Of a stretch of 64,000 nucleotides of DNA, positions 2,292-62,965 are shown in pieces. Under the pieces are notes generated by a model that saw only the letters and a program-made list of their open reading frames with translations, had not been told where the DNA came from and ran no database searches. Origin of the DNA: Candidatus Marinacidobacterales bacterium (GTDB taxonomy: Bacteria; Acidobacteriota; Vicinamibacteria; Marinacidobacterales; DATDRI01). How positions within the stretch are numbered: position 1 is the first letter of the stretch; every line of letters starts with the position of its first letter. The position numbers and the translations under genes were made by a program. Location: positions 4,608,001-4,672,000 of the forward strand of contig CBDCNP010000002.1 of NCBI GenBank assembly GCA_965219415.1, read 5' to 3'.

Positions 2292-2405
2292 GTCCGAGCA
2301 CAAGGTGCGCTCCCGTGAACGGCTTGGCGGATTGCTGCGTTTCTACCATCGGGAAGCGCATAAGTATTTTGACCTCACGGGCAAGTGGAGCTATTCGGCT
2401 CTTGG

Positions 2406-3605
2406 GGTGCTTCCGCCATCAAGTGTTGCTACGCGGCTGCGGGCAGTGGTACAGGTGCGGAAGAGACCGGGTTGCGCGCCCTACTGAGCACGAAAACCTC
2501 GATCCGCGACCACAAAGGAATCGTCGTCGCCAAGAAGATGTCTCGAAAGGTGAGCCGTCGCGTGGTCAGACCAGCCTGCATAGCCGGAGTTCGGATCTCA
2601 CGTCCGAACTTCAGAGCTCCGTGCGGTCGGACGAAGTTGTAATAGCAACGGAGCAACTCCAGGTGCTCATCGAGCCTCTCCGTCGAGCGAGCGTGGGAAA
2701 GCGTTCGTCTCGAAAGGTATGCCGAGCTTTGCCGGATGGTCAGATTTAACCGCTCGATGAACGACGTGTTCAGTGTCGAGGAGTCCTCGGAGTTATTGAG
2801 CGCGTCTTCGAATCGCCACGCGGCTCCGTGCAGCGCTCTGCGTTCGACCTTGATGATACGATCGTTCCTGCGCGTCTTTAGGACCTGGCCGTAGAGACAC
2901 GCTGGCCCGAAGAAGCGACGGATGACCTTCTGGTAGAATTCGAATCCATCCGTGACGATCAAGGGAAGACGCTCGAAATTCATCCGTCTCGAAAGGTCGC
3001 GAAACAGAGCGTGAGTGTTCCGGTAGCTTCGCCTTCCCGTCACCGTCGATGGCCAGAGCCGAGACCAGACTTCGATTGTAACGAAGACCCAACTCGGTGT
3101 CTTCTTGTTGCCCGCGAACGTGCGAATCTCGTCGGCTTGAAGCTCTTCGGCAGCGAAGCCCGCGATCCTTCTGTGATTGAATCGACGACACACTTGGGCT
3201 GCCTTCTCGAGCCAGCGGGCGACGGTGTTCCAGGCAATCCCTTTGATCCGGGAAATCGCGGAAATGCTGACACCCTCGACTCTGAGAGCGATGACCCCAT
3301 CGAAAGTAGCTCTTCGATGTTGGAGACGGTAGTAGGGCGTGCCTTTCGTCGAGGAGAACGTCTTTCCGCACTCGCCGCACCGGTATCGACGGCGTTTCCC
3401 GGACCTCGTTCTGTAGAATCCGTGGCGAACGATGTTTCCGGAACTGACTTTGCCCCGCAACGGACATGCGAGATTGAGACATCTGCGATTCTTCACTTTG
3501 GCTCGGCCCTGACGATGAGAGAACTGTGTCTTCGGAATTCTGGTTCAAACTCTAGCACGCAGACCGGTTAGAGGCTGGCCGCCAACACTTAATTGCGGAA
3601 GCACC
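2406..3605 (-). mobile_element. IS1-family insertion sequence (~1.2 kb), apparently intact
   Basis: TIRs GGTGCTTCCGCCATCAAGTGTTG / CAACACTTAATTGCGGAAGCACC enclosing a single transposase. Confidence 0.8.
2429..3496 (-). CDS. IS1-family DDE transposase (zinc ribbon + HTH + DDE)
   Basis: C..C/RYRCGECGKTF zinc ribbon, HTH, LQADE, VTDG, IERLNLTIR motifs. Confidence 0.85.
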   Translation of the reverse strand: MKNRRCLNLACPLRGKVSSGNIVRHGFYRTRSGKRRRYRCGECGKTFSSTKGTPYYRLQHRRATFDGVIALRVEGVSISAISRIKGIAWNTVARWLEKAAQVCRRFNHRRIAGFAAEELQADEIRTFAGNKKTPSWVFVTIEVWSRLWPSTVTGRRSYRNTHALFRDLSRRMNFERLPLIVTDGFEFYQKVIRRFFGPACLYGQVLKTRRNDRIIKVERRALHGAAWRFEDALNNSEDSSTLNTSFIERLNLTIRQSSAYLSRRTLSHARSTERLDEHLELLRCYYNFVRPHGALKFGREIRTPAMQAGLTTRRLTFRDIFLATTIPLWSRIEVFVLSRARNPVSSAPVPLPAAA

Positions 3606-51000: not shown

Positions 51001-51101
51001 CTGTGCGAGGTTTTCGTGCTCAGTAGGGCGCGCAACCCGGTCTCTTCTGCACCTGTACCACTGCCCGCAGCTGCGTAGCAACACTTGATGGCGGAAGCAC
51101 C

Positions 51102-54882: not shown

Positions 54883-54904
54883 TCGACCTCCATGCCTTAC
54901 GAAT

Positions 54905-55130
54905 GGTGCTTCCGCCATCAAGTGTTGGTGGCTGCCGCGTAACCCGCTCGTGTGCTAGAGTTTGAGCTTGATTTCGAGAGACGCAGTTCTTTCGGCGATG
55001 CGGGTTGGGCTGACCACACGGTGCCTGACGTTCAGAGACACCTTCGTGTGCACGCCGACATCCTTATTAATGGCGTTCGCCGACACAGGCAGGCCAGTTG
55101 ACACTAGCATTCAAACACGGCGTAGCAACA
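54905..55130. mobile_element. internally deleted IS1-type element whose right TIR is split by IS1111 (remainder at 56574-56593)
   Basis: Left TIR GGTGCTTCCGCCATCAAGTGTTGG; right TIR halves GCGTAGCAACA and CTTGATGGCGGAAGCACC. Confidence 0.75.
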
Positions 55131-55199
55131 TATCTGGACTCCTCTAGTCAAGCCCCTTTCTTTCTAGTCACGCCCCTTTCTTAATAAATCTTCCATCGA

Positions 55200-55450
55200 A
55201 GCTGCGCATCCATCGCGTCGTGACGAGTGGGTCAGACTGCAAACGTATCTTCGGCCTCAGTGAGGAGCGTCTTGGGTGCTCCGGGCCATGATGGAAAATC
55301 CGCGCGCGAGGAGCCAATCACTTTGAACGACCTCTTAGGGCCAGTGTTGCTATTGGCTTGACCCCGCGCCGGTCCGACCGGTACGCCATCAGTTGGATGG
55401 GTATCGTCGCAGCCTCTTTTGGAAGGGAAAAAGGAAAACACGAAAGTGGA
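55200..55450 (-). ncRNA. predicted bridge/seek RNA of IS1111 copy 1 (same in copy 2, ~61590-61845); boundaries approximate
   Basis: Stem AGCCAAU/AUUGGCU encloses an internal loop matching the target; a second loop matches the donor junction. Confidence 0.7.
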
Positions 55451-55460
55451 GCCTCTAAAT

Positions 55461-56492
55461 CTAAGCGGCCACCGGCGACTGGAATTCACTCTCGCGGGTG
55501 GAGACGGCCCAGACGATCCGGGCGAGTTTGTTGGCGACAGCAATCACGGCCTTGTTGTGTCCCCGCGAGCGGTGGACCTTCCGAGCCCAGGCGCGGAGCT
55601 TGTCGGGCGGGCTCTTGCTGACGTTCGCCGCGCGGAGCACGGCGCGCCCGCCCTGGGTGAGGAGCATACGGAGGTAGGAGTCGCCACGCTTGGTGATGCG
55701 TCCGAGGCGGCGAATGTCGCCACTGGAGTTTTCCTTGGGAACTAGGCCGAGGTAGCTCGAGAAGCGGCGCCCCGATGGGAAGCGGCGAAGATCGCCGACG
55801 AAGCCCACGATGGCGGTCGCGGCCAGAAGTCCGATGCCGGGAATGGCGAGAAGTCGTTGGACTTCAGGAAGCTGCTTGGTGAGCGCCTTGAGCTCGTGCT
55901 CGATGCTAGCGCACTTGTCCTTGAGTTCTCGAATCTCGGAGCAGGCATCACGGAGATGCGAACGGAGCACGTCGGGCAAATCAGAATCAGCGTCTTCGAC
56001 GAGTTCGAAGAGGGCGGGCACGACGAAGTGAGCGCCCTTTGGGATGATGAATCCGAGTTCGCGCAGGAGCCCGCGTACGGCATTGATGCGTGCGGTCCGT
56101 GTGGAGAGCCATCCTGAGCGCAGGCGATGGAGCGCAGCGAGGGTGTGCTGGTGCACGGACTTGATGGGTACGGGAAGAAGCTCCTCGTTCCTGTAGGCCT
56201 CGAGCAACGCCTTCGTGTCGGCGCGGTCGTTCTTGCTCCCGCGTCGATACGGCCTCACGAGGTGAGGTGGGAGCAGGACGACGTCGTGTCCCAACCTTCG
56301 GAACGTCCTTGCCCAGAAGTGAGCCGAGCCGCAGGCTTCGAGAAGCACGGTGGCAGCGCTCTGTTTGGCAAAGAACGACACCAATTTGGGTCGACTCACA
56401 CGGAGTTGCTTGGACACCTTCCCCGCTTCTCCCGAGATGGCAATCTCGAAGACGTTCTTTGCAAGATCCACAGCGATTGTCGTATCTTTCAT
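55461..56492 (-). CDS. IS110-family (IS1111 group) DEDD recombinase
   Basis: AVDLAKNVF, LEACGSAHFW, KNDRADT, NSSGD, ANKLARI. Confidence 0.95.
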   Translation of the reverse strand: MKDTTIAVDLAKNVFEIAISGEAGKVSKQLRVSRPKLVSFFAKQSAATVLLEACGSAHFWARTFRRLGHDVVLLPPHLVRPYRRGSKNDRADTKALLEAYRNEELLPVPIKSVHQHTLAALHRLRSGWLSTRTARINAVRGLLRELGFIIPKGAHFVVPALFELVEDADSDLPDVLRSHLRDACSEIRELKDKCASIEHELKALTKQLPEVQRLLAIPGIGLLAATAIVGFVGDLRRFPSGRRFSSYLGLVPKENSSGDIRRLGRITKRGDSYLRMLLTQGGRAVLRAANVSKSPPDKLRAWARKVHRSRGHNKAVIAVANKLARIVWAVSTRESEFQSPVAA

Positions 56493-56593
56493 TCGGACTC
56501 CTCCTTTTCGATGCGTATTCGACTGACTTTGGCACATCGATGCCGTCTATGTCAGTGGAGGAGTCCATTCCATCACTTGATGGCGGAAGCACC

Positions 56594-56990
56594 CGCTCTT
56601 GGCGTGGAGTGCGCCCGCGACCGCCACTAGAACCAGTGTAAGTCCGCCGAAGACGGCGGACTTACACGTGAGAAGCGTCCCTCCGGCGGCTATCTGGAAA
56701 GAGGGCGCGTGCCCCAGCCACCAAGAAAGCATGGGCAATGCTGGTGCACCCGTACGTTCGTGGTCCATCGGGGTTCCAAGCGAACCCATTTCCGGCCAGA
56801 ATATTGTCGGTGTAGCGCAGAAACATATAGGCATCGTCGACCCTGGTGCTCTCGGCCGCGAGCATCCGATACGCGTAAAACCCGACCATCTCCACCATCA
56901 GCAGCGGAATGACGAGAGTGGGCGTCCACCTCATCGTCGTCCGACCGGGATTCGCTCCGAGGTGGGCACCGCTTCTGCAAGCAGGGACGA
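56594..56990 (-). pseudogene. N-terminal fragment of another GT-C-like membrane protein
   Basis: VDDAYMFLRYTDN...WNPDG...YGCTS; cut by the IS1 end. Confidence 0.65.
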
Positions 56991-60237: not shown

Positions 60238-61190
60238 TCAGGCGGCAACCTCCGCGTGTTCGAGAACCTCGCTCAGACGTTGGTAGCCGTCGATGCGTCG
60301 TAGTTGAATCTGGCCAGAGGCGATAAGCCCAAACAGCAAAGCGACCGCAGACTCCTCGCTGGAGAACGACGCTTGGGTTTTCGTCCGGCGTCGAAACTCG
60401 CGGTTGAGATTCTCCAGAGCTTTGGTCGTTCGAAACGATTTCCACATGGCACGAGGGAATTCGTAGAAGGTCAGCAGCTGATTACCGGCCTCCTCTAGGC
60501 TTCGGACGACGGCCGGCGCGAGAGGCGTCCACTTGGCGACGAGCTCGTCATAGGCTTTGCGAGCATCGATCCCGTTCTTGGCGTAGACGATCCGGTTGTA
60601 GTCACGCCGGAGCTCACGGCGTGCGTGCGCCGGGCAATGTTGGAGCAAGTTGGCGCGCTTGTGCTCGGTACATCGCTGCAACCGGCACCCCGGCCACTTC
60701 TCCAGCGCTTTCGTCAGCCCCCTGTGGCCGTCGCTGATCACTAGCTTGGGAGCCCGGAGTCCTCGAGCCTGGAGTCCCTCCAGCGCGGAGCCCCAATGCG
60801 TCGAGGCTTCGCTCACCGCCAGACGCAATGACAACAGACGTTTGTGCCCGTCTGGCGCGACCCCGAGCGCGGCCAGTACGGGTACGCTGATCACACGTTT
60901 CGCCATCCGCACTTTCAGGTGGAAGCCGTCCAGGTAAACGATCGCGTAGACCTCCTCGCTGAGAGCACGGTTCTGCCATTCCTCGAAGCGCTCCTTCAGC
61001 CGACTAACCACGCGAGACAGCGCGCTCTTCGATAGGTGCTCCTCACCGAGCAGTGGTTTCAGCGCTTTGCGGACCCGGCGGCTATTTGTGCCCGACAAGT
61101 ACGTCCCCAAGAGCGCCTCGTCGACCTCACGAGTCCGGCGCGCGTACCGGGGCAACAGGAACGACGATGAACGAGATATGCTCTCAAGCA
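60238..61190 (-). pseudogene. IS256-family transposase, 5'-truncated
   Basis: VYLDGF, ISDGHRGL, QRCTEH, LENLNREFRRR. Confidence 0.85.
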
Positions 61191-61542
61191 TTGCTGGACC
61201 CTGATTGAGGCCGAATCCGAGGCAAGTAAGGACATCAAGGAGGCCCAAGCCCACTTGGACTAGAACGTGCTAGCCCGCTACGTCGCGGTAGCCCGGCCTC
61301 GATTCTGGGTTCCTCGGGTGGTCTCTTTTTCCGCCGCCGCACGGCCCCCGGTCAGCGCCTGGCTTCCCCTATTTGGCGCAGACGTGCGTGAGGTCAAAAT
61401 ACTCATGCGGCTTCCCGATGGTAGAAACGTAGCAGCCCGCCAAGCCGTTCACGGGAGCGCACCTTGCGCTCGGACTGAGGTAACTGGTTGCTGGCTGGGC
61501 ACAGCACACTAGCCTTCAAATGCCTCTAGCGGCGTAGCAACA

Positions 61543-62965
61543 TATCTGGACTCCTCTAGTCAAGCCCCTTTCTTAATAAATCTTCCATCGAAGCTGCGCA
61601 TCCATCGCGTCGTGACGGGTGGGTCAGACTGCAAACGTATCTTCGGCCTCAGTGAGGAGCGTCTTGGGTGCTCCGGGCCATGATGGAAAATCCGCGCGCG
61701 AGGAGCCAATCACTTTGAACGGCCTCTTAGGGCCAGTGTTGCTATTGGCTTGACCCCGCGCCGGTCCGACCGGTACGCCATCAGTTGGATGGGTATCGTC
61801 GCAGCCTCTTTTGGAAGGGAAAAAGGAAAACACGAAAGTGGAGCCTCTAAGTCTAAGCGGCCACCGGCGACTGGAATTCACTCTCGCGGGTGGAGACGGC
61901 CCAGACGATCCGGGCGAGTTTGTTGGCGACAGCAATCACGGCCTTGTTGTGTCCCCGCGAGCGGTGGACCTTCCGAGCCCAGGCGCGGAGCTTGTCGGGC
62001 GGGCTCTTGCTGACGTTCGCCGCGCGGAGCACGGCGCGCCCGCCCTGGGTGAGGAGCATACGGAGGTAGGAGTCGCCACGCTTGGTGATGCGTCCGAGGC
62101 GGCGAATGTCGCCACTGGAGTTTTCCTTGGGAACTAGGCCGAGGTAGCTCGAGAAGCGGCGCCCCGATGGGAAGCGGCGAAGATCGCCGACGAAGCCCAC
62201 GATGGCGGTCGCGGTCAGAAGTCCGATGCCGGGAATGGCGAGAAGTCGTTGGACTTCAGGAAGCTGCTTGGTGAGCGCCTTGAGCTCGTGCTCGATGCTA
62301 GCGCACTTGTCCTTGAGTTCTCGAATCTCGGAGCAGGCATCACGGAGATGCGAACGGAGCACGTCGGGCAAATCAGAATCAGCGTCTTCGACGAGTTCGA
62401 AGAGGGCGGGCACGACGAAGTGAGCGCCCTTTGGGATGATGAATCCGAGTTCGCGCAGGAGCCCGCGTACGGCATTGATGCGTGCGGTCCGTGTGGAGAG
62501 CCATCCTGAGCGCAGGCGATGGAGCGCGGCGAGGGTGTGCTGGTGCACGGACTTGATGGGTACGGGAAGAAGCTCCTCGTTCCTGTAGGCCTCGAGCAAC
62601 GCCTTCGTGTCGGCGCGGTCGTTCTTGCTCCCGCGTCGATACGGCCTCACGAGGTGAGGTGGGAGCAGGACGACGTCGTGTCCCAACCTTCGGAACGTCC
62701 TTGCCCAGAAGTGAGCCGAGCCGCAGGCTTCGAGAAGCACGGTGGCAGCGCTCTGTTTGGCAAAGAACGACACCAATTTGGGTCGACTCACACGGAGTCG
62801 CTTGGACACCTTCCCCGCTTCTCCCGAGATGGCAATCTCGAAGACGTTCTTTGCAAGATCCACAGCGATTGTCGTATCTTTCATTTGGACTCCTCCTTTT
62901 CGATGCGTATTCGACTGACTTTGGCACATCGATGCCGTCTATGTCAGCGGAGGAGTCCATTCCAT
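61543..62965 (-). mobile_element. IS1111-type IS110 element, copy 2 (CDS 61853-62884)
   Basis: Near-identical to copy 1, with the same CA/TG junctions inside an IS1 TIR. Confidence 0.9.

Follow-up and report, generated by a model that had tools for sequence, protein, structure and literature searches.

An IS1111-family insertion sequence probably aimed by its own downstream-encoded RNA at the terminal repeat of an IS1-like element family in an acidobacterial genome

The window analyzed here, a 64,000-nt stretch covering positions 4608001-4672000 of contig C3 in an acidobacterial genome of 8 Mb (named contigs C1, C2 and C3), contains two copies of an IS1111-family insertion sequence (IS), each lodged in the terminal repeat of another mobile element. 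Copy 1 (55131-56573, minus strand, 1443 bp) is one of 30 complete copies with identical junctions that BLAST and end-motif searches of the contigs recover genome-wide, with a mean pairwise identity of 99.5%. Copy 2 (61543-62965, minus strand, 1423 bp) lacks one 20-bp tandem unit of the right end, is otherwise the same element, and resides in a different type of miniature inverted-repeat transposable element (MITE). The most probable reading is that of an active IS1111-family IS whose DEDD transposase is aimed by an RNA of about 150 nt encoded just downstream of the transposase gene, and as part of the whole interpretation this reading is given a probability of about 0.87. Both the mechanism and the lifestyle are already known, as RNA guidance of IS110/IS1111 elements was shown in 2024 (Siddiquee et al. 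2024; Durrant et al. 2024), and no new mechanism is revealed.

Membership of the IS1111 type had been proposed in a first-pass annotation of the window and is borne out by the transposase. Its translation exceeds the cut-offs of the two Pfam domains PF01548 (45.7 bits) and PF02371 (85.5 bits), which are the IS110 N- and C-terminal domains (DEDD/RuvC-like), and scores 302.6 bits against a cut-off of 140 for the NCBIfam family NF033542, 'IS110 family RNA-guided transposase'. It also contains GLVPKENSSG, matching GL-P----S(T)G, the C-terminal signature of IS1111-type transposases (Siddiquee et al. 2024). Of the named elements in the plasmid collection, ISPa25 is the nearest, with 45.9% amino-acid identity; IS4321 and IS5075 share about 33% (32.9% for IS5075). 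The gene (55461-56492, minus strand) encodes 343 amino acids from an ATG preceded by AGGAGG, the likely start; the longest open reading frame (ORF) reaches 56537 (358 amino acids), and the ORF is intact in 29 of the 30 copies.

The insertion site of this element is essentially invariant. Each of the 33 left ends has GGTGCTTC(C/T)GC(C/T)ATCAAGTG directly before it, with unrelated DNA further out, and 30 of the 31 right ends reading TGTTG continue with CT. TGTTGCT follows 28 of the 30 paired right ends; of the other two, one continues with TGTTGGCGG and one with the non-coding region of the element itself, in a partial tandem. Read on the plus strand, both window copies lie between GCGTAGCAA-CA and CA-CTTGATGGC(G/A)GAAGCACC, corresponding to a TG core on both sides on the sense strand of the element. 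For copy 1, this dinucleotide (CA on the plus strand) is found at 55129-55130 and 56574-56575, and only TG is shared by the two junctions, with no duplication beyond the core. The element thus always splits a 29-bp terminal repeat at TG, in one orientation and 20 bp from the outer end of the repeat. That both window copies break the repeat at the same position with TG on either side had been noticed before, and the coordinates are confirmed; mapping of all genomic copies, which had been set beforehand as a check, places the left end of each complete copy in this terminal repeat. The uninterrupted form, GGTGCTTCCGCCATCAAG-TG-TTGCTACGC, has 58 exact occurrences in the genome, including the two that had already been pointed out in the window at 2406-2434 (plus strand) and, as a second copy, at 51073-51101 (minus strand).

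The genome offers a specificity test of its own. Repeats with an identical CAAGTGTTG were sorted by the two bases that follow it and by whether they are occupied or empty. The occupied repeats carry CT in 30 cases and other bases in one, compared with 81 CT and 97 other among the empty repeats (Fisher p 1.6e-8). Expressed as occupancy, 30 of 111 (27%) matching CT repeats hold the element compared with 1 of 98 (1%) near-matching variants. The unoccupied variants (TTGGTGAGA, TTGGCGGCC and similar) deviate from the target only where it would pair with the beginning of the RNA's 5' loop strand (guide A-G). Furthermore, the 11-mer CAAGTGTTGCT occurs 87 times in the genome, and since 82 of these lie inside this terminal repeat, the repeat is effectively the sole location of the guide's site.

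The candidate guide RNA is encoded in the longer of the two non-coding stretches, which comprise 330 nt 3' of the stop codon versus 81 nt 5' of the ATG at 56492. Its region (55232-55382, minus strand) retains 73-76% nucleotide identity even in relatives with only 55-62% transposase identity. In the minimum-free-energy fold, an outer stem CGCGGGG/CCUCGCG is followed by the stem AGCCAAU/AUUGGCU (55312-55358), and a loop consisting of AGCAACACU and GUUCAAAGUG encloses the hairpin GGCC/GGUC, while a second hairpin is flanked by UUCCAUCAU and AAGAUACGU. The inner hairpin of this first loop, the target loop (55329-55342, minus strand), reads GGCC-CUAAGA-GGUC; in copy 2 its second arm is GGCC, so that the change of the inner stem from G-U to G-C claimed for that copy is correct, and helix 4 shows double changes in 5 of 5 pairs. 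The hairpin of the donor loop (helix 6; 55253-55287, minus strand; GGCC..GGAGC..GCUCC..GGCC) is present in both the minimum-free-energy and the consensus fold.

The fold is supported by covariation. The consensus fold was derived from an alignment of 13 sequences, and pairs were counted in 31 distinct sequences on an alignment fitted to the covariance model. In this alignment 88.1% of cells are paired, compared with 30-38% when the partners are slid. Compensatory evidence is found in 22 of 32 pairs changed on both sides and in a covariation score of 0.455 versus at most 0.079, with 0 of 500 shuffles on any measure. The stems are conserved among relatives, and the four loop strands are the variable parts. 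The covariance model finds the region downstream of the ISPa25 transposase gene (83.5 bits, E 1e-16) and also matches an unnamed IS on a Klebsiella plasmid (41.9 bits). The two-loop seek/bridge RNA layout suggested by the first-pass annotation thus has covariation support and shows the loop order published for IS1111 members.

Each of the two loops can be read against DNA. The 5' strand of the target loop (55343-55352, minus strand; U-AGCAACACU) is complementary to the target top strand AGTGTTGCTA, exact over 10 nt, and to AGTGTTGCT(A) of the target. Among 21 flank sets, this match takes first place. On its 3' side, the same loop has a strand (55319-55328, minus strand; GUUCAAAGUG) with the sense of the left target half, ..TCAAG-TG. 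In the RNA, AGCAACACU lies 5' of CAAAGUG and the two matches overlap at AGTG in the target. This is the order of the IS1111 seekRNAs, in which the complement of the top strand stands 5' of the match to the bottom strand and both overlap in the target (Siddiquee et al. 2024). The 5' strand of the donor loop (55288-55296, minus strand; UUCCAUCAU) is complementary over 9 nt to A-TG-ATGGAA, which is made up of the final right-end base, the core and the six bases that open the left end. Its 3' strand (55243-55251, minus strand; AAGAUACGU) contains AGAUA (55246-55250), the last five bases of the right end. These loop strands are identical in all 30 copies. When the 330-nt region was shuffled, the 10-nt target match was obtained in 33 of 5000 trials, the 9-nt donor match in 74 of 5000 and both together in 0 of 5000.

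Guides and flanks also vary together across relatives. A permutation test used 21 of 27 relatives, leaving out L015 (rearranged junction, with the guide of the window element), L063 and L071 (duplicates), L037 and L049 (left flank truncated at a contig end) and L067 (ends probably mis-set). The target-loop strands match their own flanks better than those of others, with a mean longest match of 6.8 versus 3.8 nt for one strand and 5.4 versus 3.1 nt for the other, and this own-flank preference was reached in 0 of 20,000 permutations for each strand. The loop strands of ISPa25 match the ISPa25 flanks, and a poor own-flank match is seen in a few relatives, such as L078 and, on the 3' strand, L064. 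The 3' strand of the donor loop holds the last five bases of the element's own right end in 24 of 25 relatives, representing six different 5-mers. This donor-loop test is partly circular, the donor-loop sequence having helped to place the ends in distant relatives; the target-loop test is unaffected. A relative from another genome, L014, is 93% identical to the window element and has other loop-1 strands (AACAAUCGU and UUUGCAGCG) together with another site, ...CCAG-TG-ATTGTTA, a natural re-aiming of the guide.

Several observations weigh against RNA guidance as read here. The 3' strand of the target loop is exact over 5 nt only (AAGUG), and 7 nt (TCAAGTG) are reached only with one bulged A. 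The first-pass description of this loop at 55312-55358 therefore stands as to its stem, loop strands, hairpin (all in the minimum-free-energy fold) and 10-nt complement, but its second strand is exact only over those five bases. Similarly, the donor loop was correctly described as carrying the 9-nt UUCCAUCAU at 55288-55296 and AGAUA, but AGAUA is followed by CG in the RNA and by TG in the DNA. One insertion occupies a TTGGCGG variant, and discrimination by the guide is thus not absolute. The covariance model did not detect the non-coding region of IS5075, so that the RNAs of IS5075 and of the window element are at best distant relatives, and an Rfam scan of 54900-56800 gave chance-level matches only and no family for this RNA. 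The sequencing runs consist of assembled contigs, and those from RNA libraries lie on parts of the transposase gene and are uninformative on transcription, RNA ends and circles. Neither a circle joint nor an empty-site joint is among the joints listed for these runs. Finally, because relatives share descent, the permutation tests overstate independence, most of all for the donor loop.

In the proposed transposition cycle, the element would be excised as a circle whose joined ends could form a junction promoter. A -35-like hexamer, TTGACT, can be read in the right end (55146-55151, minus strand), with TTGAC conserved in relatives, and in the circle it would stand 17-18 nt upstream of TG-n-TGGAAT of the left end, making a plausible junction promoter. 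The RNA, if produced, would be bound by the transposase, with loop 2 (UUCCAUCAU and AGAUA) holding the joined donor ends and loop 1 holding the terminal repeat. In loop 1, (U)AGCAACACU would pair with the top strand AG-TG-TTGCTA, and ..CAAAGUG with the bottom strand of CAAG-TG. The two strands together would define a site of 11-13 nt that in this genome is present almost only inside the terminal repeat of the IS1-like IS and MITEs. Recombination at TG would then place the element, in a single orientation, 20 bp inside the outer end of the host repeat.

The host of these insertions is a repeat family whose 23-bp terminus, GGTGCTTCCGCCATCAAGTGTTG, has 463 occurrences with at most 3 mismatches and heads several element types. 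An intact host IS of 1200 bp is found at 2406-3605 (minus strand), with a transposase ORF at 2429-3496 (minus strand), the targeted end at 2406-2434 and the untargeted end at 3583-3605. The stop codon of its single 355-aa ORF falls within the targeted end, and the other end reads ...GTGTTGGCGGCC. Further types in this family are MITEs of roughly 244 bp. Copy 1 is carried by one of them, which measures 244 bp without the insert (54905-56593), with the untargeted end at 54905-54927 and the targeted end split into 55120-55130 and 56574-56593. In the sequencing runs, loose ends of contigs fall at 54905 and 56593, the boundaries of this host element, which fits a repeat present in many contexts.

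The first-pass annotation had called the host an IS1 element. The best family of the host ORF is indeed IS1 (NF033558), and its many homologues of about 355 amino acids carry PF03400 and, where a JGI name is given, are named IS1 family. But the NF033558 score of 85.3 bits remains below the cut-off of 100, as do those for the IS1/IS1595 zinc domain (20 bits versus 28) and for PF03400 (22 bits versus 24.1). In BLASTP, the host ORF matches E. coli InsB over 34 amino acids only (E 2e-5), and an alignment of the host termini with both ends of E. coli IS1A has 10 invariant columns of 36. The host lacks the two frames, InsA and InsB, that a frameshift joins in classical IS1, a single ORF being present in the homologues as well, although single-ORF IS1 subgroups are said to exist. 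The target-site duplication of IS1 is about 8-9 bp. No direct repeat of at least 4 nt flanks any of 55 host elements, and at any offset the flanks of 54 elements agree no better than mismatched controls. This missing duplication argues against classical IS1, although recombination between the hundreds of copies could produce the same picture. Good 23-bp terminal repeats without a detectable target-site duplication are unusual for a DDE element with such ends. Given the sub-threshold IS1 scores, the single ORF and the missing duplication, 'IS1-like' is a fair description and 'IS1' is not established; from its sequence, the host appears to be only distantly IS1-like.

The first-pass annotation held it probable that the element immobilizes its host; judging from the junctions, this is no more than a possible consequence. 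On insertion, the host ORF and its stop codon are left intact, and the outer 20 bp are parted from the end-specific inner bases. Since the left end of the element begins with ATG, the outer terminus retains 22 of the 23 conserved bases, only position 21 being changed (TTG to ATG), and the host transposase might therefore still recognize the outer end. An alternative that differs in the consequence only is that the insertion is neutral to the host, or that the IS1111-family element hitch-hikes on MITEs moved by the host transposase, and this has a substantial, if lesser, likelihood. This alternative is favored by the single altered position in the conserved 23-bp terminus, by the untouched stop codon and ORF, and by the fact that 30 of 111 susceptible ends are occupied with no obvious loss of host copies. 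Against it, 1.4 kb now lies between the tip and those inner 6-9 bases that, within the 29-bp repeat, are peculiar to the targeted end. It is also countered by the diversity of the host parts of the composites, and no evidence of moved composites was found.

The copies might also have spread mainly by riding along, such that one or a few original insertions were moved as composites by the host IS1-like transposase or multiplied by segmental duplication, but this is very improbable. As all junctions are identical, the junctions alone cannot separate the two routes; the outer end with its 22 of 23 conserved terminal bases might leave composites mobile, and some outer flanks do recur, one flank being common to two copies. 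However, for three of the 30 copies an uninterrupted repeat exists at a paralogous locus whose flanks are 99-100% identical over 300-480 nt, and these filled/empty pairs show insertion into pre-existing host copies. Insertions are distributed over four or more host types, with 15 copies in A, 10 in B, 2 in C and 3 in others, and the host parts are only 79-83% alike pairwise versus 99.5% for the inserts. The same 1423-bp variant of the IS occurs in host types A and C. In addition, two relatives from a sister genome, L018 and L028, which are 93% identical to the window element and have the same loop strands, sit at look-alike sites outside any such terminal repeat that share only CAAG-TG-TTGCT. 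For the pair in the window, the inner flanks differ, copy 1 being in the 244-bp MITE with its other end at 54905 and copy 2 in another MITE type, and the two copies are therefore not one segmental duplication. The suggestion made earlier that the two insertions are independent is upheld by the different MITE types and the filled/empty sites, and segmental duplication is excluded for them.

Least probable of all is that the transposase protein itself recognizes the repeat and that the RNA complementarity is a by-product, such as a target fragment picked up by the element or an antisense sequence with a regulatory role: the CCAUCA of the donor loop does resemble the CCATCA of the repeat in the same sense, by chance, but the loop strands change along with the flanks in 21 relatives with proteins 40-98% identical, the 93%-identical L014 differs in both loop strands and site, and published experiments found the RNA essential in IS1111 members.

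With RNA guidance by a downstream-encoded RNA as the preferred reading, the element can be placed among known systems. IS1111-family elements aimed at repetitive extragenic palindromic (REP) sequences and at attC sites are known, a junction promoter has been described for the family, and the bridge RNAs of IS1111 elements have been placed in the right end (Durrant et al. 2024). IS4321 and IS5075, which belong to the IS1111 family and target the 38-bp terminal repeats of Tn21-family transposons, resemble the present case in that insertion is confined to one position and one orientation within a terminal inverted repeat belonging to a different transposable element; they differ in that their host is a Tn3-family transposon rather than an IS1-like IS/MITE family of an acidobacterium. 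In the attC-targeting IS1111-family members ISKpn4 and ISPst6, the seekRNA has been shown experimentally, and that of ISPa25 has only been predicted. The window element shares with this group the closest named transposase (ISPa25), the match of the RNA model to ISPa25 and the loop order, whereas the aim is an integron attC site there and an IS terminal repeat here, and the guide strands differ within conserved stems.

Residence in a MITE family is likewise known from Coxiella burnetii, where copies of IS1111 sit in the QMITE2 family and strains differ in filled and empty sites. The site there is described as a GTAG palindrome (REP) within the MITE and not a terminal repeat, and the passages compared contain no guide reading. 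IS621 similarly uses one RNA with a target and a donor loop, each reading both DNA strands around a core dinucleotide; in IS621, the RNA lies on the 5' side of the recombinase gene and its guide strands come in reversed order, whereas the window element carries its RNA on the 3' side and has long sub-terminal repeats. Among the papers listed by a literature search that did not cover the supplementary target catalogue of Siddiquee et al., no account of an IS1111 member targeting IS1-like ends came up.

The value of the present case lies in the fact that guide, donor and target are all legible from sequence and that the genome supplies a built-in specificity experiment. The 111 matching and 98 near-matching sites allow the effect of two or three guide mismatches to be estimated in a natural IS1111 system, an IS1-like IS/MITE family is added to the mobile-element ends colonized by IS1111 members, and the 21 or more relatives with readable guide-target pairs could define the targeting rules of 3'-encoded RNAs.

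The junctions of relatives bear on the role of the core dinucleotide. In L042, L045, L047, L050, L054, L064, L065, L068 and L073-L080, TGATG is conserved at every left junction, with TAATG in its place in proteobacterial relatives, and in the same set the two bases that follow the right end differ from one relative to another (CG, CC, CT, GG or TG). Uninterrupted target copies of L068 read GCTCGAA-CC-GATTGTTAGG and contain no TG. It follows from the variable right dinucleotide and from the L068 targets that most relatives have no duplicated core, the left junction keeping the dinucleotide of the donor and the right junction that of the target. On this comparison, the window element appears to be a case in which donor and target dinucleotides happen to coincide.

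The right flanks of relatives including ISPa25 (L045, L046, L054, L056, L064, L065, L068 and L079) read ..TTGTTAGGC, GTTAGAC or GTTAGCC and resemble attC core sites. The idea that these relatives also target IS1-like ends was dropped because of such attC-type right flanks, and the lineage of the window element seems to have switched its aim from attC-like sites to TGTTGCTACG. A bolder proposal, put forward here as rather unlikely, is that the lineage is a specialized 'transposon of transposons'. A few loop changes would have re-aimed its guide from attC-like sites (GTTAG...) to the stop-codon-bearing IS1-like end; with 22 of 23 terminal bases regenerated by its left end, it could cap the inner repeat of the host and ride host MITEs, and a left junction that always keeps the donor TG/TA with a right junction that keeps the target's would imply a tolerance of core mismatches unlike that of IS621.

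The right sub-terminal inverted repeat of the element (55135-55145, minus strand; sense strand AGAGGAGTCCA) is complementary at 10 of 11 positions to the left one (56557-56567, minus strand; sense strand TGGACTCCTCC). These repeats of 11 bp compare with a family norm of usually 11-13 bp, and the same repeat is found in relatives. The terminal extensions are ATGGAA on the left (6 bp, or 8 with TG) and GATA on the right (4 bp, or 6 with TG), versus 7 (or 6) and 3 in the family, the count depending on where the boundaries of repeat and core are drawn. At the left junction (56568-56587), insertion creates a perfect inverted repeat of 6 bp, with the host CCATCA and the element TGATGG as its arms around AG; the CCAUCA of the donor loop therefore has the same sense as part of the target, which may be coincidence. 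A 20-bp tandem duplication (tagtca[a/c]gcccctttcttt-like unit) is present in the right end of most copies, those of 1443 bp (55152-55191 in copy 1 compared with 61564-61583 in copy 2), and the 1423-bp form without it is represented by copy 2 and one further copy.

Variants of the RNA module were also encountered. In run X18, a contig from a marine-sediment RNA library matches 55232-55258 and 55362-55382, and 99 other letters replace 55259-55361, which contains both loops; the contig probably derives from a relative whose guides are different. Next to full copies at C3:3315116-3316873 and in L002, L010, L011, L025, L015, L016, L020 and L021, the 3' non-coding RNA module is partially repeated in tandem. 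In several of these, the right end is linked to a position inside the element, close to where the transposase gene ends (..AGTG-AATTCC..), which recalls the modular circles described for ISPpu9.

The repeat family is unevenly distributed over the genome. Nearly all 436 terminal-repeat copies and all 30 copies of the IS1111-type element lie in C2 and in C3:1.83-5.67 Mb (3.8 Mb), compared with 2 repeat copies in C1 (2.07 Mb) and 4 in the first 1.5 Mb of C3, at equal GC content across the contigs. This could result from replicon structure, a recent invasion or an assembly artefact. Within the window, the surroundings form a nest of other IS remnants (60238-61254, minus strand; 2300-2366, plus strand; 61400-61466, minus strand). 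These include a fragment of a Mutator-family (PF00872) transposase, and a C-terminal ...RERLGGLLRFYHREA transposase fragment occurs in two copies that adjoin host repeats.

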